From the NCBI RefSeq assembly GCF_018350175.1, contig NC_058368.1, positions 70,124,001-70,188,000 on the forward strand: 64,000 bases of DNA, given 5' to 3'. A program made the position numbers and the translations under genes. Shown here piece after piece: positions 4,730 to 18,031 of the stretch. The notes beneath the pieces are model-generated. The model worked only from the letters and a program-made list of their open reading frames with translations. It was not told where the DNA came from and ran no database searches. The stretch comes from Felis catus. Lineage: Eukaryota. Positions within the stretch are counted from its first letter, which is position 1; every line of letters starts with the position of its first letter.

Positions 4730-4845
4730 CTTAAACGCCAGTGTAAACAGAGACAGAGTGTCCAGAGCCGTAAGGCACACCTCCGTAGCAATGTTGGCTT
4801 CAAGTAGGGACTGGTGAAGGACGTCAGCGTCTGAGTGGCCATAGC
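4730..4845 (-). CDS. DOCK9: DOCK9 exon, 116 nt: [38 protein letters not shown]
   Basis: GCAG acceptor, AAG|GTTGGT donor, phase 1->0. Confidence 0.95.
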
Positions 4846-5074
4846 CTGCGTGAATTACAACACGAGGTTACTGCCGGGGGCTGCAGACAGAGAGGGCGGT
4901 GGCCCGATACAATCACGCAGTCAACTTTTGATTATTTAGGGAAGGCTTCCTTTGGGGCTTTGTCTCCCTGTTTGCCCTTTTCATCGGTGGTGGGGCAGGG
5001 GTAGGTAATTAATAATGCGTCTGTTGGGTTATGACTCTACGATTCTGGAAGGGAAAGAATGGCAGCAACCATTT

Positions 5075-5600
5075 ATTTTGTATTTGCCACGTGCCAGCAA
5101 TCATTCTATGAACTTCACATGTATTCGCTCATTTAATCCTTCAACGGCCCTATGAAGTATGTACATTATTAAACCCTTTCTGCAGATAAGGAGACAGAGG
5201 CACAGGAAGGCTAAACAGCTTGCCTTAAGTCGCACAGTTAGCCCACAGTGGGCGCCAATCCACCGAGTACTTGGCTGAGCTGCTGGGACGGGAGGGGCGG
5301 TGAAAGAGGCTGAGGCTTCCCAAGCTTCCCACATGGACACAGGCAGCAGAGGAGCACAGGGGTTAAGAAAATGAGCCCAGGGTCAGCCTGCTGGTCCCTG
5401 AATCCAGCTCAGCCACGTGCTAGCTGTGTGACCGTGGGCAAGTTATTCGGCCTCTTTATACCTCTGTGTCCTGGCCTGTAGAATGGGGACAATAATAGTA
5501 TCTACCTCAAAGGGTTGCAGGGAGCATTAAGTTGGTTACAATATGTGAAATTCTTAGAATAGTGCCCGGCGCATGGTGAATGCTACGTAAGTGCTGAATC
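5075..5600. mobile_element. Two MIR SINEs in opposite orientation (about 5075-5270 minus, 5345-5600 plus)
   Basis: MIR core motifs on both strands. Confidence 0.7.
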
Positions 5601-6957
5601 GCTGACGTGAAGAACCAGGCATGATAATCAAGAGTTGACTGCACTGCTAATAGTATTCTACTTGCTTTATCAAAAAGCACGAAAGCCAGTATGTCTGAAG
5701 GAAACGTTTAAGAAAAGGAAAGGACTTGAAGAATCCTAATTTAAATACAAACTGATATCTACTATACATGGCTATAAACTTCAATTTAGTACTGACATAA
5801 ATGTAGCTCGACATACAATTTGAGATATTACATTATGAAATGATATGCATTAGCAGAAATACATACAGGGGTGCAAAGATGTTACAGGACTGATCTAGAT
5901 GACAAAGAAAGATGGCACGATAATAAAATGTCATGTAATGTCTTTCTCCAAGGAGCATAAGCAAATCATCACTTACTATGTAGGTAATTTTCTTTATACT
6001 CCAGAGAGGAGGACATTTTGTATACAGATCAGGAAAATGAAGTGCGGAAAACCTAGAGAATTTTCTTGAGGCCATTAATGGGGGAAAAAAACCCCTAGAA
6101 ACTGCACCCTAAATTCCTGATCCAGGTCACCATATCATAGTACCTGTTACTAGGATAAAGTAAAGTAACTAGCATGATGTTATTCTCGCTTGAGCAAATG
6201 TCAGAGTTACAGAATGATTTTTAAAAGACTACAAAACAGACTTTCCAAGTTACTGAGAAAGATGGATATATTTTGGTAATAAGGTCAGCCAAGGCATCAC
6301 CCATTTGGCATGGTTTGTTTGGTAAGATACAGAGATGATGAAAGAGGAAAACGGACTGTTAACTATTGTTAAAGTGATCATAAAATGGGGCAAGAGGGGA
6401 AAAAATCAATACAGCACCTTTTGTTAGATCAACCAAAATTATCACAGGTCACAAAGACCCTTTGTTGAGGGCTGCCGTTTACCCCTACTGATGGTTAATG
6501 ATCTGGGTTAAATTGTCCCAAGAACTGGCTTTAATTTTTTTCTTGGCACAGAACTGACATTTTCTTTTTCTAGGTAACTCCTTGGCTACGTGTATGCAGA
6601 TGCGATCGCCTACACGCTCAAGGATTTCCACTGTGTTTACTTTCAGCTGGAGGTCTAGACCAATCCAGGACTGAAATTTGGCCATGTGTTGTCTTTAAAA
6701 CATATAATCAATGGCCATGCTAGTTAAGTTTTTATATAATTACGTATCCATGTATGGAAACATGACAATGACAAATTTCTCTAAACTCTTACACCATCCG
6801 TGAATCTTGACCTTGTCTATCTGATCTCCTTAAGGGGGACAGTCAGATTCATATGGAGTCTGTCTGCCTGTGTCTGAATTATCTAAGAATAAAAGAAATG
6901 ATCTTTTTAAGCCACAGTTGGTTATAATTTTGCTTTTTGTTAAGCCCTCATCTCAAA

Positions 6958-7100
6958 ACAGAGGATTATTGGAAGGGTTGTGGGAGGGGGGCTGGGCTAA
7001 ATGGGTAAGGGGCATTAAGGAATCTACTCCTGAAATCATTGTTGCACTATATGCTAACTAACTTGGATGTAAATTAAAAAAAGAAAAAAGAAAAAAAGAA
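6958..7100 (+). mobile_element. 5'-truncated carnivore L1, 3' end
   Basis: G-rich 3'UTR, gaatctactcctgaaatcattgttgcactatatgctaac, A-rich tail. Confidence 0.88.
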
Positions 7101-8066
7101 ATCAGCAGGATTCCTGAGCTGGTGTTATTAAAAAGTCCCTAAAAGTAAGGGGCAGCATGGAGAGGTTATGTAAGCGGTAGACACTGCAGGGACAGTTTAC
7201 TGAGAGATGCTCCGGTGGAGAAGGCTTGTCTCAACACCTGGAACAAAGCCGTGCACAAGGGAAGGCTTTAGTCAGCGGTCACCATAGGAAATGAACTGAC
7301 TTGGTATATCCAAAAAGTGATCGTAAGAGAAAAAGCAAGTTCTTAAGGTACTGGTCAGCAACTCACTGAAGCTGTAATATTAAGTGGATTCTGACCCCAG
7401 CAAGCAAGAAGTGCTGTGTTAACCAACCCTACTGATTTTCCCTAGGGGACAGCGCTCGGGGCACTGACTGTCTTCAGCCAGGCTGGTCAGGGAGAGGAGG
7501 ACTTCCTCCCTTCCCCAGTGTGCCATCTTTGGCATGCACATCATGGACTGCTCCTATTTCCACACTTTTTTGTTCTGATGTCACTCTATGATAAAGGATT
7601 TATTCCAGAATCCCCAAATCTTTTAAACACTCAGAGGCCAGGGATGAGATTTCTTCCCCTATCTAATGTCATCTGCTCTGTTAGACTTAATTAACCTTGC
7701 TCTGTTTAATAAACTGTTACTAGAACAGCTTGACTGAATAATGCTGACCACATCTGTAAACTGTCTCCCCCTCTCCACTGCCATGACATCAGAGGTGATG
7801 TGGTGGGAGGGACACAGCTACATGCCTTTTCCAAACATGAGAGGACATTCGAGCTCGAAGAAGTCAGACATGTATTCTCATAGGGGGCACTTTCTTTTCA
7901 ACAGCTGCCCTTACCCTTTATGAAACCAGAATTCTTGTTTTTATCGTTAATTTTTTTCCCTCTGGCCCATACAATATAAATCCAAAAAACAATACATTTT
8001 ATGAGAAAAATGTAAATACTACTAAATGACAAGGAATCTTCTTGCTAAAAGAAGTCCCCAAATGTT

Positions 8067-8286
8067 CACAAGAGGCTCTAAAATACAGAGAACAAGCTGA
8101 GGGTTGCTGGAGGGGTTGCGGGTAGGGGGATGGGCTAAATGGCTAAGGGGCATTAAAGAAGACACTTGGGAGGAGCACTGGGTGTTATACACAGGGGATG
8201 AATCACTGGAATCTACTCCTGAAATCATTTTGCACTATTTGCTAACTTAGATGTAAATTTAAAAATAAATTAACTGATTAAGAAAA
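8067..8286 (+). mobile_element. 5'-truncated carnivore L1, 3' end
   Basis: L1 3'UTR; 20-bp TSD aaaagaagtccccaaatgtt (8047-8066 / 8287-8306). Confidence 0.92.
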
Positions 8287-8510
8287 AAAAGAAGTCCCCA
8301 AATGTTGAAGATCCAGTCTCCCAGGTATATTAACTCATGGTCTCCAGCATTTACTAACTGCACGTATTTTTGCAATGTATCAGGTGGACCAACCCCTACA
8401 TCATCTATTGTTCATCTCCATCTCACTTTTACTGCTAAAAAGGTTTTCCTCACAAATGAGCAGAGAGGAAACAGTAGAAATAAGGAATAATATTCCCAGG
8501 CAAAACTTAC

Positions 8511-8530
8511 GTGATCTTGCTGTCTGTCCT
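8511..8530 (-). CDS. DOCK9: Candidate 20-nt mutually exclusive microexon: (R)GQTARS(R)
   Basis: T-rich plus (TG)n tract, ATCAG acceptor, CAC|GTAAGT donor, phase 2->1, no stop. Confidence 0.55.
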
Positions 8531-11500
8531 CTGATTCACACACACACACACAAAAACAAATATGCTCAAAATGATTTGTGGAATGAGTCTAAAATCTCAG
8601 TTTATACTCGAGGAAATGGTTATGCCATCTGCTCTCTCTGACCAATGCCTCAACCTAATGTTGAGCGGTGTCTGAAAATAGTACCTGTTATGGGATTTAC
8701 ATCTCAAACTGGGAAAACACTTGGTTTACGCATACATTTTAATTTAAAGTCCTTTTTAAGGGTATTAAAAACATAAACATGACTGACTTTGAATAGGCAT
8801 TTTGCCAGACTTTGAGTTCTGAAACCCCATCAATTACAAGAAGTACCAATGACTGACTGCCATATTAGATGTACTAGGTAAGATACAGGTGTAAGATAGG
8901 TCTGTTATAACTCAAAGATATACCCTGATATTACAAATGCTAGAAAATGTGCAAAAATGTATTTCTCAATCAAGGAACCTGTCTCAGAATCAAAAAAAGT
9001 GGCTTTATAAACAAACATTTCATTTACTATCTTGAGTATATATATGCCTTCAAAGCATCCAAGTCCATTTTTACCTATTTTAAAAAATATATTGCCAGGC
9101 TTAAAACCTTTTGAAAAATATTAATTTTACTTCAGAGGATATATGCATTCTCTGTATTTTTCCTATTAATTCAATATTATATCAAGGAACTTTATCACTG
9201 ATACTCATTTGCTTACTTGTACTTCATAGACATCAAAGAATTCCAGAGTTAGATGGGGTCTTACAAACCCACTTGTCCAACTCCTCACCTTCTCTTGTGA
9301 TGTTTAAGTGACCTGGACAATACCCCCAGTGGGTCTTCATCCAGTCTCTGTTTTCACACCTCCAGCTCCAAGTGCCCACGCTAGCTAATGGGCAGTTCAG
9401 TTAGAAAATGCTTTTGCACAATGACCTGAAATCTAATTCTCTGCAACTTAACTCCATGACCTTGAACTCTCTCTTATACTGGATTATATGAAACACAGGT
9501 TTTCTTGAAGTGTTTCTACCTCTTGCTGGCTTTCCCCCCCTCATACCAGTGGGAAATATGAATTCTCATACAAATAGATTTAATATATTCCTAGGGCAAC
9601 ATATAACATCAAAGTAAATGCAAGGTGTTATTTTATATGTTTTGCACATGCATTACCTATTTGCGAACGTGTTTCACTTAGCTTCCTTCTCATAGCTTGG
9701 CTTATGTAAAATACTCTATATGCAGCTATCACTCTCAATATACCATTTGACACAAATATCTTCTGTTGACACACAATGGAGGTACTTTACAATAAAAAGG
9801 TCAATGTGTTAATGTTATACACATTTACTTTTCATGTACCTGGGTAACGACTCAAAGTTAATGAACCTCTCTGTATCTTTTGAGTGTTTTTTTTTTTTTG
9901 AAATAGTTAAAGACTATTTTGAGCACAGTAGGATTTGTAATTTTCATTGTTTCCTATCAAAATCCAAGAGTAAGAACCTGCCACGGTGACATGTGTACTG
10001 CATATGGTGTCCTTTCCCACATCCTACATGGATGTGCTAATGGGGGCATGAAAGTTGGCCTCCATTGAATTAAATTTCCTGTGGTCTTCTGCTGCTCCCT
10101 GCTGGTCAAGCTGAGGCCTGGCAAAGCCTTTCCTACTCAAAGAAAAAGGCAAAACAAAAAATGCAGGTGGTGTATGGGGGACTCTTTCTATTTTTATTCT
10201 TTTCTAAAATAAATTCATTTTAGACTCTGGCACCCTACAAATCTCTCACATATTGGATCTATGTCATATATTGGATGGTCCAACAGAAGGTACTGTATTC
10301 ATTGTTAAAGAAGAATTTTTTAGGAAGACATATATATCTATAGACTTCCCACAGAACACCCAGGTACAGGTGTGAAAATAATCATGTATGTATATATACA
10401 TATACATGCTCACACACATACACATGTATACATATAGCACATACTTCTCTGTGGCTTCTGGGCAAACTGACAATTTGGAGCTCAAAAAGCTAACAGAGGG
10501 AAAGGCTGACACCACCCAAATACATCATCAGATTTAGAGTTGTAAATGAAGACTGAGTTCTTGAAGAAGACGCAAGGACTGTGAGACACCAGAACCAATT
10601 TGGGATGAGCAGGAATTGTAGGAACACAGGAGAAGGCTCAAAGAATCAGTTACACACTGTTTATTGGGAAGGCAGAAGGAGAAGCTCTGATGGAGGATGG
10701 TGTCACTGAAAACTGACTGAAGCAGAAACTATGGGAAGAAAGAAAGGAGAGAGGCAGGAAGGATGGGCTCTCCGTGGGTAGCAGGAAGAGAGGATGGATA
10801 TCAACCACGTTAGCAATATGGTCCTTGGCTGCAAAACACAGCCAGCTGTCTCTCCCCTCCAATTCAAGCCACCATTGCAAAATCTGTTTGCAGTGGGAGA
10901 AGCTGCCGTAGTTCTTAGTGGATTAAGGTTATTTATTCATGTGCCGATCATTCACTTGACTTTTGTTTTCTGTGTTTCCTGAATGATTCTTTGGAGGCGG
11001 GGACTTGGTCTGTTGATTTATTTTTTAAAGTGCTTTAAAGTTTAAGTATTTATTTCAGCTGATGGCGAGGTAGTCCCTGTGTTATAATCTGCACAAAGGC
11101 AGTGTAGCAACTTCTGCAGAACAATGGGAATTTAATTTCTGTTTGCTAAATGGGAAATGAAAACGAAAAACAACAAAATTTTTTGTTTTGTTTGTTTCAA
11201 CCCCTTGCCTACAGAGCTAGAAAAAGCCCTAACAGACAAGAGGTGAAACAATGAAGTGCTGTGGCCTTAGATGTGTTACTAATATACGTCCTGCAGCTGA
11301 GTATAGGACTCAGAACTAGCTCTTGAAAGCTACCAATTCAGTGTGTGGCAGGCAAACATAATACGGATCTATATTAAGCTCAGAATTTTATAGAGAGTCT
11401 ATGCCCATTGCATTTAACTTCGTTGGGGCGGAAGAGGGGACAGCGGTTATATATTTCGATTCCTTGGCCTTCTTACTCTGAACTACTACCAACTTAAAGT

Positions 11501-12019
11501 ATTGAGAATATTGTCTTTACTCTTAGCCTATATTAAGAAAGAGGTATGAAGATCACAATGAGTGCAATTCCTATGATTAGAAATGATGAGAAGATATTAA
11601 TAACTACATTAAAGACATGGAATGAGAACAAATAATTGTCTAGATTAAACAACTAGCTACATTATACCTGGAGAAAAGATGAAACAATTCAGAGAACATG
11701 TCACTAACAGAAATGGTATTTATTATAAATGATCGCCATTAGTTTTTAAAATACTGCATGGCTGATATTCTTTTAGGTTTTCTGCTTTGAGAAACCCTTA
11801 GAAAGATGAAACATGTACATGTTTCTAGAACTAGTACATGACGCCATGTCCCCTCTGGTGATTTGAAAAAAGTAAATTAAAACTATGCTCCCCCTTTTTG
11901 GTAGAATCTCTACTGTGAAGTTAGAAAGCCCCAAAGTTAGGAAGGCAAGATGAACGAAAAGGTCTCAGTTTGCAAGTGAAGCGGCCTCATAAGCAGACTC
12001 CAACCTGATTAAATCTTAC

Positions 12020-12063
12020 CATTGTCTACAGAAATTCCAAGCACACTTGATATCTTTCTCACA
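12020..12063 (-). CDS. DOCK9: DOCK9 mutually exclusive exon, 44 nt: (S)VRKISSVLGISVDN(G)
   Basis: TTTTCAG acceptor, ATG|GTAAGA donor, phase 2->1; matches a human DOCK9 isoform peptide as I recall it. Confidence 0.88.
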
Positions 12064-12574
12064 CTGAAAACACAGAAAAAGTCACTTTGTTATTGGCTTT
12101 TCCACACCCTCACAAATTGATTCATGGGCTTTATGTTTTCACAGCAGTTTAAGGATTAACATACATTCAAAGCTGGAATGTCAGAATGTGGACACGTGAT
12201 CAGTTACATGCATGGGCTCAGAAGAGTGAAAGGGACCTGTTCCAGATGTCCTCAGGACTTCCAGAGGGAAAATGCAAGTATTAAGTTAAAAATATCAAGA
12301 GAATGTTTGGCTGTCAAACCTGCCAAATTTTACGTTAAAAAATACTGAACGGAGGGGTTGGGACACTTTCAGGTCTAATGCCGTAGCTGACCACGTTCCG
12401 CATTATGTCACTCTCCTCCAAAGAAGGGGATTTCGCCATGAACTCTTCATCCCACTTGCTCTGAGCTGGAAGAAAAGTCAGGTTGGTGATGTGGCGCAGT
12501 GCGGCCTGGGGCTCTCCCCTCTGAGGTGTCACATGAGATGGCTGGCTGTTACGATGGCATGTCATGGGACTTAC

Positions 12575-12711
12575 TGTGGTTAAAAGTGAGAGAGTTATCC
12601 AGGCTGCCCAGCTGCTGCAATCTGGCATGCATCATTCCTGTTCTGTTACGGGAAACAGGCAATGTCTGAGACTTTCGATCATGAACTATGGGTCCCAACC
12701 CCTCCTGGTTC
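12575..12711 (-). CDS. DOCK9: DOCK9 alternative exon with two acceptors: long 137 nt ([23 protein letters not shown] + [22 protein letters not shown]) or short 68 nt (12575-12642)
   Basis: GCAG acceptor at 12712-13, internal ACAG acceptor at 12643-44, GTAAGT donor; both forms phase 2->1; recognised DOCK9 sequence. Confidence 0.93.
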
Positions 12712-13187
12712 CTGCAACATGAGTGAAATGGGATAGAAGCAAAAGTTAGACTTGTTACACTGCAGCAAGACGAGGAGGGTTAGTGAGGCCAGGACACAGC
12801 ACAAGGGACGGCCACACGCCAGCCACGTGCAGCGCAGCCTTCTGGGGCCAAGGAGCCAGAGACGCACACACAGGCCTCAGCTCTAAAAGGGTTCACAGCA
12901 AAGCACCTGACGACAAAGAAGCAAAAACCAAGCTGAAGCAGGGAACTTTCCAGTTCTAGAAAGTACTTTAGAGATGCTGCTTTTAAAAAATTTGAGCATC
13001 TGTCTGAGGTGGTGCTAAAGATTAGCGTTCTGACAACTGCCAAACACCATGAACCTTTTCGGGTTAAATAGGTTATTAAAGAGCAAAAAAAAAAAAAAAA
13101 AAAAAATTCTTTAATGAAAATAATGCATTGGAAGAAGCAGAGAACAAACATGCAATGAGGAGGATTATATGAGGCGGTTTTAACACC

Positions 13188-13193
13188 TTTATT
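13188..13193 (-). promoter_or_regulatory. Candidate intronic polyadenylation signal
   Basis: AATAAA on the gene strand, CA about 16 nt later, then TGTTTGTTCTCTG and a long T run downstream. Confidence 0.4.
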
Positions 13194-14511
13194 CTTACCC
13201 AGGCAGGAAGGAGAAGAGCCACACACTTTGTTAAACTTGTCAGCAGTCAAGTAAAGAAAATAGAAAAGTGATCTGGGTTAGCAATCAAACAGCTAAACTT
13301 CCTACTGTGTACCATCACCAGAGCAGATGAAAAATGAGACCCGTGCTGGAATGACACCTGTCGCCCATCCCGTAGCCAACGGTCTCCCTCCCTGTGTTAT
13401 TGTGTGGAGTAGGACAGGGCATGCACGGAGCGTCATCGGGCAACATGCTGCTGGGTGATTTCAGACTGACGTGATGAGAAGGCACAGTAGTCATCAGACC
13501 GGACTGCCACGGAGAGCAGACACCGAGAGCGTTTACACTACTGCTCGGGACCTTTTTCACGTGTAGCAGAGACCACGGCAAAATTTTCCATACGGCAGGG
13601 CACACAGCTCACCACAGGGCACGTAACAAGTAACACTACCTTCCACTCCTGCCTTCCTATGCCCATCTGGTTTTAGGATAGTCCGAGGAAGCATACTTCT
13701 ATATGCAAATATATACAGGGTGCTTATAAAGTCAGAAGACCTTTTTTTTTTTTCTTAATTAAATTTACAGTCATTACAAGTTAACAGTTACACAAAACCC
13801 AATTCTAAAATATTTTGTTGGGACAGAAATCTTCGGCTTCCCACATTCACCATGTTCAGTTCTGTGGCATTTCATCCTATTTTGCACAACACTCTCCAAA
13901 TGCCATCTTGTGATGTAGGTGACAGTTACTTCAAGGAGGCTGTGAAGCTTGCTGGGCACAGTGCCAGCAATATATGTGTCTGCCCATTTTCACGGGACAA
14001 AGTCAAAGCGAATAAAATCAAGGTGGGAGGCATTACTGTATAAGGTCACCTTGTATATACTTGCTTTTGGTACTCAAAAGTGCAAATGTAAAAATTACTG
14101 TTACGATAAAAAATAACAGCTAAAATTAGAGAACTTGTAAGTGCCGCTGCATTTCAGTTAAAAATAAAAAATATTAATAGGATAAAAGAATAAAATACGC
14201 TAAGTTTTCTTTAAAAAAAAACCACAACCTTTCAATGAACATAAAACATAATTCTGGACATTTCTCAAATATCCCAAGAAAAGAACAATGTTAACATAAA
14301 AAGTAAAATCTTCACATTCAAACAGTTCTTAAAAATCTCTTTCCCATTTCATTGCTGTAAAACAGAATCATAGATAAGAGAAAAAACCCTCAATTACTAC
14401 TAAATTTTAAAGTTTTTCTTACAATGTAAATATGTTCACTTTAAATAAACTGCTAAAAACAGTAACAATAGAAAAATAGGATACTTAGACCAAGACCCCA
14501 TAGATACATTA

Positions 14512-14683
14512 TCACGGAATACACAACACTGACAAAAACAAATACAGACACACTGAGAGTGGGTATAGGGCGGGAGTAAGAACTTGGTAATGACAAGATG
14601 TGCTCTGAGGAAATGCTTCCAAGAAGGACCTGCGTGGCTGTCCCTGAGCAGAGTTTCCAGCTCTCCTCAAGTTCAGGATGGAT
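14512..14683 (-). CDS. DOCK9: Candidate alternative last exon (coding part): (R)SILNLRRAGNSAQGQPRRSFLEAFPQSTSCHYQVLTPALYPLSVCLYLFLSVLCIP*
   Basis: CTCTCAG acceptor in the phase needed after exon 15545-15592, 56 open codons, then AT-rich UTR-like sequence and AATAAA at 13188-13193. Confidence 0.5.
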
Positions 14684-14863
14684 CTGAGAGTATGGTGTGG
14701 GGCAGGGCAATGAGGATGTATGATACTCAGCAAAGAGCCCCGGCCGGACAATAGTAGAGCACGGTCAGCTTAGTTGGAGAAAAAAATTTTAGAGATGGTT
14801 TTTGTGGGAGTCTAAACAAACCTGAGATGGACTGAAAACACTCTTTCATTATGAAAAAAAGGC

Positions 14864-15092
14864 GGGGCGCACCTGGGTGGCTCAGTCACGTAAGTGTCTG
14901 ACTTCGGTTTAGGTCATGATCTCGTGGTTCATGAGTTCGAGCCCCGTGTCGGGCTCTGTGCTGACAGCTCGGAGCCCGGAGCCTGCTTCGGACTCTGTGT
15001 CTCCCTCTCTCTCTGCCCCTCCCCTGCTTGCACTCTGTCTGTCTCTCTCTCTCAAAAATAAAGAATAAGCATTTAATAAAATTTTTAAAAAA
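14864..15092 (+). mobile_element. SINEC_Fc-type SINE
   Basis: Full head, CT tract, A tail. Confidence 0.95.
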
Positions 15093-15544
15093 GGGAGTGG
15101 TTATATGAGAAATTAACATCCTTGTAGTCGGGAGAAGGAATGGTAAAAAATGACCTTTGAAAGTCAAACAGGGAAAGGGGAAACCACTGAAGAAGAAGAA
15201 AAGAGCAAGGAGACACACCAGGAGGGGCTGGGAGAAGAGAAAGGGGACATGGAAGGAAGAGAACATGGCGGGGGTGGGGGGTAGAACTTGGAAGGAAGTG
15301 TACGAGAGCAGCAGCAGGCCATGAAGGGAAATCCTTCCAAGAGATGTGCATGAGGCAAAATGAGACAGAAGGAGTGTGGGAATGTAGGCGGAAGATGCTA
15401 CCAGATTTGATGGCAGCAATCCAAAGACATCACGGCTGTTTATGAGAATTCCAACTGCCAATCATCACAGATGACGATTCCCACACATTCAGATCCAAGT
15501 GACACGGAGAATGATACACAGTTCAGACCAAACCCCCACAGTAC

Positions 15545-15592
15545 CTGGCTATGTATCGCTTCCCCATGTACTGGAACTGGTGCAAGCAGACT
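15545..15592 (-). CDS. DOCK9: DOCK9 exon, 48 nt: VCLHQFQYMGKRYIA(R/S)
   Basis: GCAG acceptor, CAG|GTACTG donor, phase 2->2. Confidence 0.95.
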
Positions 15593-17434: not shown

Positions 17435-17501
17435 TCAGATATTGTAAAAAAATCCATAAGTTCAGACGTTGAAGCCTTGTTCCAATACGTAAACAAAGCA
17501 T
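17435..17501 (-). CDS. DOCK9: DOCK9 exon, 67 nt: ALFTYWNKASTSELMDFFTIS(E)
   Basis: CTAG acceptor, GTGAGT donor, phase 1->2. Confidence 0.95.

Positions 17502-17949: not shown

Positions 17950-17953
<4 letters not shown>

Positions 17954-18029
<76 letters not shown>
17954..18029. repeat. (AC)23 directly followed by (GT)15: palindromic microsatellite
   Basis: Read directly; centre CAC|GTG at 17999/18000. Confidence 0.97.

Positions 18030-18031
<2 letters not shown>

Follow-up and report, generated by a model that had tools for sequence, protein, structure and literature searches.

Organization of the DOCK9 Locus

The window, a 64,000-nucleotide stretch of Felis catus contig NC_058368.1 (positions 70,124,001 to 70,188,000), contains on its minus strand a part of DOCK9, a cell-shape gene and Cdc42 activator. 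A constitutive upstream exon of 48 nt (15545–15592), identified by matches to database proteins, ends in phase 2, and the constitutive downstream exon of 116 nt (4730–4845) starts in phase 1. The forward and reverse primers published for mouse correspond to positions 15557–15576 of the former (0 mismatches) and 4779–4798 of the latter (2 mismatches), respectively. Direct joining of these exons resulted in a frameshift with a stop 7 codons on. Five units of 137, 68, 44, 59, and 20 nt were each flanked by AG/GT, were 2 mod 3 in length, and were open in frame; all two-unit and three-unit combinations shifted the frame, and joining of the 137- or 68-nt unit to the 44-nt unit produced an immediate stop (…HM*). 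The early stop of off-frame transcripts is located more than 700 codons ahead of the normal end. Recomputation on the minus strand confirmed the coordinates, exon phases, and frame arithmetic of the initial annotation, including the loss of frame on inclusion of no unit or of two, and the assignment to DOCK9 agreed with the matching database proteins. The module, described as lying ahead of the GEF region of DOCK9, does not directly adjoin the GEF domain; its C-terminal limit lies approximately 220 residues N-terminal of Pfam DHR-2 lobe A.

Alternative Exons and Their Distribution

The protein sample comprised 366 proteins (from 120 of 1217 matches and 15 of 4364 main-cluster members), none of which was named as cat. 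Exactly one of the 137-, 68-, and 44-nt forms was present in 256 of the 259 database DOCK9 proteins having both flanking exons, in accordance with the earlier view of these forms as alternative isoforms. The long form (137 nt, 12575–12711, minus strand), corresponding to mouse "exon 37a plus 37b", occurred in 120 of the 259 proteins, from fish to mammals; its short form, produced through an internal acceptor (68 nt, 12575–12642), occurred in 57 (VastDB MmuEX0015484), and the 44-nt exon (12020–12063) occurred in 79 (MmuEX0015485). In a less biased subset (n = 224), the three forms were found 78, 55, and 73 times, respectively, and a peptide of the 59- or 20-nt unit was found in none. The 44-nt exon was also present in bird, lizard, catshark, and teleost proteins, and four fish read-throughs contained both exons in the same order, approximately 200–220 nt apart. 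One mole gene model carried both exons in frame, with extra residues at the join. In one raw poly(A) run, of which approximately 2% was sampled, 2 of 12.9 million reads covered the downstream exon and 0 joints were found, and the assembled contigs from three runs had a hole over this exon. Judging indirectly from the database proteins and the inclusion values published for mouse, the 137/68-nt and 44-nt exons are each joined singly to both flanks, as is characteristic of mutually exclusive exons. The linker, previously estimated at 7 to 46 residues, has supported lengths of 16, 24, or 47 residues.

Several origins and causes of mutual exclusion were rejected for this pair. Exon duplication was not supported, as the similarity of the 137- and 44-nt exons was matched by 321 of 2000 protein shuffles and 777 of 1000 DNA shuffles; no pair among the four units had significant similarity. 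Steric interference (donor-to-branch distance below approximately 50 nt) does not fit the intervening intron of 511 nt; with this length and an AG 21 nt above the 44-nt acceptor, there is no long AG-free zone. U2/U12 incompatibility was likewise discarded, the donors being GTAAGT and GTAAGA and the acceptors CAG with ordinary tracts.

Proposed 59- and 20-nt Units

The initial annotation had regarded the cluster as larger than usually described, with additional units of 59 nt (9657–9715, minus strand) and 20 nt (8511–8530, minus strand). Candidate units were scored using a crude home-made splice-site matrix with textbook-type frequencies. Among 130 candidates, the 44-, 137-, and 68-nt units ranked 2, 4, and 7, whereas the 20- and 59-nt units ranked 27 and 88, respectively. 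The 59-nt acceptor (score −3.9) was without a pyrimidine tract (43% pyrimidine) and had a second AG 10 nt upstream, and 23 units on 12 donors in the intron scored at least as high as this unit. Shuffled introns yielded a unit at least equal to the 59-nt unit in 200 of 200 trials and to the 20-nt unit in 149 of 200 (103 of 200 when restricted to units of at most 30 nt), but at least equal to the 44-nt exon in only 9 of 200. Thus, the scores and shuffles indicate that the three units making up two exons are real and that the remaining two are at chance level.

A reading in which all five units form a frame-locked array, the 59- and 20-nt units being real tissue-restricted or felid-specific exons, draws on the AG/GT flanks, length, and open frame of both, on the strong donor of the 20-nt unit (8.2), on a TGCATG 5 nt below the 59-nt donor, and on an upstream acceptor (9784) that gives an open 128-nt form of the 59-nt unit. 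Each of the two regions occurs once in the genome, and a repeat origin of the two units was not detected. After removal of the real exons, frame-restoring units were mildly in excess at two of six thresholds (9 vs. 3.65 and 16 vs. 8.6), although the excess at the latter was shared equally by 0-mod-3 units. Against this array, besides the chance-level scores, peptides of the two units were present in 0 of the 259 proteins with both flanks, no mouse microexon in this interval was found among 2987 listed rows (after conversion of the mouse coordinates), and the 52-codon frame around the 59-nt unit had 0 homologues in 1.84 billion representatives, which is a weak test. Moreover, the two known events already total more than 100% in mouse endothelium. 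The five-unit array is considered highly improbable, and the enlargement of the cluster was not upheld; if the two units were nevertheless real, which we regard as hardly to be expected, the locus would hold an unusually large non-duplicated exon array.

Neural SRRM4-type microexons have a UGC motif near the acceptor and are deeply conserved. The 20-nt unit was rejected as such a microexon, since the 45 nt preceding its acceptor were free of TGC and it was absent from the mouse table. Its weak acceptor has a (TG)7 run in place of a pyrimidine tract. UG-repeat binders such as TDP-43 hold cryptic exons silent, and such exons surface on loss of the binder. The 20-nt unit may accordingly be a silenced cryptic exon and not a functional isoform, as the directly upstream (TG)7 run and the strong donor suggest; however, the TG repeat is short, and this origin appears improbable. 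Chance intron sequence is the likely nature of both the 59- and the 20-nt unit.

DOCK-D Paralogues and the Long-Form Motif

The same phase-2-to-1 layout was found in both paralogues, with a single 143-nt exon in DOCK11 and exons of 102 and 125 nt in DOCK10, from which the frame lock of DOCK9 is understood as an inherited ancestral DOCK-D exon phase and not as a special design. An exon similar to that of 44 nt was not detected by tblastn in the DOCK10 or DOCK11 stretch. The codons of RKSQTLP (12657–12677, minus strand) are confined to the long form; the K/R-S-x-T-x-P pattern is common to DOCK10 and DOCK11, whose homologous exons carry K/R-S-Q-T-x-P. RKSQTLP resembles a 14-3-3 phosphomotif; K/R-S-x-T-x-P, kept by the long form alone, is a predicted phosphomotif. 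No link between 14-3-3 and this motif was found in the literature search.

Structure prediction for the 44- and 137-nt forms gave a mean pLDDT of 42.8 and 43.4, respectively, with values below 50 in the linker; both models being of low confidence, they were used only to place the segment between predicted helices. None of the solved DOCK9 structures covers the segment, the DOCK9 chain matching the DHR-2 part only, and this loop is not discussed in the available part of the DOCK11 cryo-EM paper (PMC13663769).

Nova Motifs and the Published Mouse Event

The either-or exon event of DOCK9 is already known and is kept from fish to mammals. The reciprocal switch of the mouse Dock9 exons was published, with RT-PCR, as a Nova2 target (Giampietro et al. 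2015, PMC4633719). In its supplementary VastDB rows, Nova2 knockdown in mouse changed the inclusion of the 68-nt event from 25 to 59% and that of the 44-nt event from 86 to 47%; the values total 111 and 106%, indicating leaky exclusivity or biased estimates. The mouse event (MmuEX0015484 and MmuEX0015485) is orthologous to that of the cat, with identical lengths (68, +69, and 44 nt), order, spacing, and flanking exons, and the RT-PCR in mouse was primed from this pair of flanking exons. The passages and tables examined contained no frame or decay analysis, RNA structure, or isoform function, and no 59- or 20-nt exon was among its six Dock9 rows, in a table restricted to changed events.

In the cat sequence, the pyrimidine tract ahead of the 137-nt exon holds three YCAY (Nova-type) motifs (12719–12731, minus strand), in a stretch that gene models reading through it show to be conserved as far as birds and turtles, and a cluster of 5 motifs in 47 nt lies at and below the donor of the long exon (12533–12579, minus strand). 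YCAY clusters thus adjoin the long exon, as would be expected of a Nova-regulated exon; clusters of equal density occur at two other places in the intron.

Predicted RNA Helices

Two competing complementary partners (17 and 14 bp), one in each flanking intron, were found for the initial 20 nt of the 137-nt exon. The exon-start segment (12692–12709, minus strand) is predicted to pair upstream with 15217–15233 (17 bp, one G-U) and downstream with 12347–12364 (14 perfect bp at 12351–12364 and 4 more past a bulge), both on the minus strand; the downstream pairing would loop out the entire 137/68-nt exon. In having one element complementary to two competing partners, the exon resembles ATE1/Dscam-type structures. 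Rfam gave no match, the 25 longest inverted repeats were discarded as AT-rich noise, and searches for orthologous DNA returned one spurious locus each in the metagenome and prokaryote collections and none in viral contigs.

Two related proposals follow from these helices. Upstream pairing, at a site close below the upstream donor, might keep the long exon and downstream pairing might loop it out so that the 44-nt exon is used, which we consider unlikely; exclusivity might also be set mainly before splicing by the competing helices, in the manner of ATE1, Nova and decay playing secondary roles, a proposal of similarly limited probability. In their favor, the two best helices for the exon start across the window on both strands were the flanking ones (17 and 14 bp; the next was 12), their energies were reached in none of 150 and none of 300 shuffles, and helices on both sides were found for only 1 of 25 exon starts. 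The downstream helix was present in the minimum-energy and centroid folds, and a trace of it is preserved in translation in one other mammal, where 6 of 7 residues over the downstream arm are kept and one change would break a pair. However, the helices were a post hoc finding, the segment is rich in G with CT-rich tracts elsewhere within approximately 3 kcal, the best shuffle was only 0.6 kcal short of the upstream helix, and the overall fold of the region was average (z = −0.04). In addition, fish keep the exon pair despite a different exon start, the 44-nt exon is blocked by no helix, and the paralogues are without the helices.

Exons 7a/7b of ATE1 (Kalinina et al., PMC7797038) likewise form an either-or pair with one segment and two competing partners. 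In ATE1, however, the shared element is intronic and the competitors are duplicated, one before each exon, whereas in DOCK9 the element is exonic and no pairing lies near the second exon; the role of the ATE1 structure was proven by mutagenesis, and the DOCK9 helices are predictions. DOCK9 was absent from five supplementary files of PMC8052449, the full pair tables of which are possibly elsewhere. Neither the helices nor the long-form-only motif was found in the literature searched, and the helices may be catalogued in the supplements of PMC10573301.

Double Inclusion and Decay

Double inclusion of the 137/68- and 44-nt exons shifts the frame to a stop, as in the frame-shift, decay-policed class of mutually exclusive exons described for human (Hatje et al. 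2017, PMC5740500). Compared with this class, the two DOCK9 exons show no detectable homology, and their lengths are up to 93 nt apart; a search by name found DOCK9 neither in the text of that paper nor in 10 of its supplementary files.

Nine of the 366 proteins, including those of quail, three snakes, and four salmonids, end exactly at the double-inclusion stop. Double inclusion could be a regulated output, yielding a stable truncated DOCK9 without the GEF domain or tuning its level through decay, a reading consistent with the constant stop-forming start of the 44-nt exon and with the mouse inclusion totals above 100%. Nevertheless, all nine are gene models, none is named as a mammal, and the beginning of the 44-nt exon is under protein-level constraint as well; the …HM* models could instead be terminal-exon transcripts, and regulated double inclusion is judged quite unlikely. 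Nonsense-mediated decay is a plausible enforcer of exclusivity; the driver of the choice named in the literature is Nova2.

Proposed Mechanism and Significance

The locus is very probably a two-exon, three-isoform either-or module of DOCK9 (137, 68, and 44 nt) in which Nova2 tilts the choice in mouse cells toward the 44-nt exon, decay is likely, and the 59- and 20-nt units probably represent chance intron sequence. The 137-nt exon would correspond to the original DOCK-D exon running from phase 2 to phase 1, and the 44-nt exon would be a substitute of matching phase that is not related to it. Nova would silence the long exon by binding the YCAY runs that surround it; competing RNA helices might assist this choice. 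Transcripts with neither or both exons would acquire an early stop and likely be removed by nonsense-mediated decay. The choice may set a surface loop of 47, 24, or 16 residues in the armadillo region and may retain or drop the conserved phosphomotif. A bolder and doubtful extension is that the choice is a folding switch tipped by Nova, through which the armadillo region gains or loses a 14-3-3-type phosphosite common to the whole family.

The core event being known and frame-policed either-or exons being the commonest class, the module as initially described adds little. In the literature searched, no function was assigned to the three DOCK9 isoforms, although conservation of the two exons spans fish to mammals and the choice between them is Nova2-responsive in endothelial cells. 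The conserved long-form-only motif and the two predicted helices provide specific testable leads. If the folding switch were true, isoform-specific regulation of a Cdc42 activator would be switchable by one antisense oligonucleotide.

Reading Frame and Isoforms of the DOCK9 Segment

The middle part of DOCK9 lies on the minus strand of the window, where DOCK9-named database proteins align exon by exon from ~56500 down to 4730. All coordinates, lengths and phases of the exons and units in the initial annotation were reproduced: an upstream constant exon (15545–15592, 48 nt) ending in phase 2, a downstream constant exon (4730–4845, 116 nt) starting in phase 1 and, between them, a long exon (12575–12711, 137 nt), its short form from an internal acceptor (12575–12642, 68 nt), a 44-nt exon (12020–12063) and two further units of 59 nt (9657–9715) and 20 nt (8511–8530). 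SINEs are also present in the intron. The claim that zero or two units break the frame held as well, as full skipping led to a stop in the downstream exon and all pairs and triples to a frameshift, with an immediate stop where the 137- or 68-nt exon was followed by the 44-nt exon. Any single unit of the five restored the frame, with 47 (137 nt), 24 (68 nt), 16 (44 nt), 21 (59 nt) and 8 (20 nt) residues between the constant YIA and YGHS.

The protein set (366 in all, 259 with both flanking exons; biased by queries built from real exons) was sampled among the matches listed (120 of 1217, plus 15 of 4364 main-cluster members) and included several proteins from dog, fox, seals and bears, with none of those listed named as cat. 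The long, short and 44-nt forms were found in 120, 57 and 79 of the 259 proteins, respectively; one mole gene model with extra residues had both exons in frame, and two opossum gene models carried something else. A less biased subset (n = 224) contained 78 long, 55 short and 73 44-nt forms and none with the extra units, the remaining 18 being truncated, odd or devoid of the upstream exon. Nine truncated DOCK9 models (P0022, P0032, P0048, P0093, P0109, P0325, P0329, P0333 and P0334), from a bird, snakes, salmonids and one further assembly, none named as a mammal, stopped exactly at the predicted double-inclusion stop. The 48 nt directly above the long acceptor (12712–12759, minus strand) form an open stretch in frame that terminates at a further strong AG and is kept as far as birds and turtles; in many database gene models this stretch is read through and replaces the upstream exon, probably by mistake.

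The either-or choice between the 137/68-nt and 44-nt exons is already known. Mouse Dock9 is a validated target of the splicing factor Nova2, knockdown of which raised the 68-nt event (acceptor 69 nt upstream) from 25 to 59% and lowered the 44-nt one from 86 to 47% (available part of PMC4633719); in the window, the mouse RT-PCR primers given there fall within the two constant flanking exons. Lengths that are no multiple of three were reported for 377 of 629 human mutually exclusive exon clusters, making frame policing the usual situation; DOCK9 was not found by name in the searched supplementary files (PMC5740500, in part). Other or unspecified DOCK9 events appear in the accessible portions of PMC7551865, PMC8627023, PMC12807931 and PMC9550651.

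Assessment of the 59- and 20-nt Units

Open, AG/GT-flanked pieces of 2-mod-3 length were abundant in the 10.7-kb intron. Scored with a crude splice-site matrix, 23 units on 12 donors equalled or exceeded the 59-nt unit, versus 10.8 on 6.5 donors in 200 intron shuffles, all 200 of which held at least one unit as good. Equal or better units occurred in 149/200 shuffles for the 20-nt unit, 37/200 for the 68-nt form and 9/200 for the 44-nt exon. With the proven exons removed, 2-mod-3 units were mildly enriched at two of six thresholds (count reached in 9/400 and 6/400 shuffles), the sole statistic favouring an enlarged array; 0-mod-3 units were equally enriched at one of these two, and enrichment was absent at the 20-nt unit's own threshold and higher. 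We read this excess as noise among 18 tests. The 59- and 20-nt peptides were found in none of the 259 proteins with both flanks. It is thus very unlikely that the two units are real exons of a cluster larger than described: this part of the initial interpretation found no support, and its 137/68- and 44-nt alternative isoforms stood.

Two features make the units look regulated: for the 59-nt unit, TGCATG (9647–9652, minus strand) 5 nt below its donor, and for the 20-nt unit, a TG repeat (8537–8552, minus strand) immediately above its acceptor. Cat read mapping over the downstream exon (two reads, no joints, intronic contigs with a hole over the exon) was neutral on every unit. An 8-nt mouse exon presumably lies near the Dock9 3' end, the gene assignment and coordinate conversion being our assumption. 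Among the coordinates searched, it was the only chr14 entry at ~121.545–121.8 Mb in the mouse microexon table (2,987 entries), the method of which detects only insertions into annotated junctions (PMC7821500, in part).

Predicted RNA Helices and Splicing Regulation

The long exon's initial 20 nt are predicted to form competing helices (12692–12709, minus strand): upstream with 15217–15233 (17 pairs, one G-U) and downstream with 12347–12364 (14 perfect pairs with 12351–12364 and 4 after a bulge). These were the longest for this segment on both strands of the window (next best 12 bp), and their energies were reached in 0/150 and 0/300 shuffles; a GC-rich perfect repeat of at least 14 arose in 0/1000 shuffles of 1.5 kb, and any such repeat in 8/1000. 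Among 25 exon starts, some located roughly and with 10 and 20 shuffles each, only that of the long exon stood out on both sides. With the downstream helix formed, the internal acceptor and the long exon's donor would both be enclosed. One mammalian read-through, whose intron is moderately conserved overall, kept six of seven residues over the downstream arm, and one change would break a pair. A folding switch built on these helices is a candidate reading of low probability; against it, the helices were selected after the fact, the segment is G-rich and CT-rich tracts elsewhere give near-equal energies, the region's overall fold is average, and the exon start differs in fish. ATE1 likewise has competing pairings (PMC7797038, in part); of the ATE1-type tests, the predicted DOCK9 helices failed none and passed only the first, that one element can pair with two competitors. 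DOCK9 was unmentioned in the related literature among the matches listed, the supplementary tables of which may list these helices. Separately, adjacent AC and GT microsatellites (17952–18031), ~450 nt above the exon starting near 17501, form a predicted 32-bp hairpin.

Three forms (137, 68 and 44 nt) are productive, and other combinations lead to early stops. Nova2 favours the 44-nt exon (PMC4633719, in part) and may act via YCAY motifs, three of them in the tract of the long acceptor, which is kept to birds and turtles, and five at the long exon's donor; leaky off-frame transcripts would be cleared by decay.

Protein Segment and Origin of the Frame Lock

The spliced segment ends ~220 residues ahead of lobe A of DHR-2, the GEF domain, and by comparison with DOCK11 (PMC13663769, in part) may lie inside the armadillo region; the structure models were too poor to place it other than between helices. 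The 69-nt extension of the long exon encodes KSQTLP (KSLTLP in 4 of 194 sequences). The RKSQTLP codons (12657–12677, minus strand) are nearly invariant in DOCK9 and match RKSQTMP in DOCK11 and RSQTLP in DOCK10; the short and 44-nt forms are devoid of the motif. We take RKSQTLP to resemble a 14-3-3 phosphomotif, and no paper linking 14-3-3 to KSQTLP was found. The 44-nt exon peptide (12020–12063, minus strand) starts with SVRKISS in all sequences from catshark to cat, and its RKIS presumably resembles a basophilic kinase site.

The long exon was present as far as teleosts, bichir and sturgeon, and the 44-nt exon in birds, a lizard, a catshark and teleosts; four fish-like read-throughs had both in the same order, ~200–220 nt apart, with the 44-nt acceptor and donor kept. 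No similarity was detected between the two exons, and a duplicated-exon pair was therefore rejected in favour of a non-duplicated one; steric-interference and U12 mechanisms of exclusivity do not fit.

Between homologous flanks in the same genome, DOCK11 (locus L009) has a single 143-nt exon, with AG kept where DOCK9 has its internal acceptor, and DOCK10 (loci L010–L011) has the segment divided between two exons, a symmetric one of 102 nt and one of 125 nt, an arrangement reminiscent of the 69 + 68 split of DOCK9. Both run from a phase-2 start to a phase-1 end, a layout suggesting that the long DOCK9 exon is the ancestral asymmetric exon, any substitute for which would need a length of 2 mod 3.
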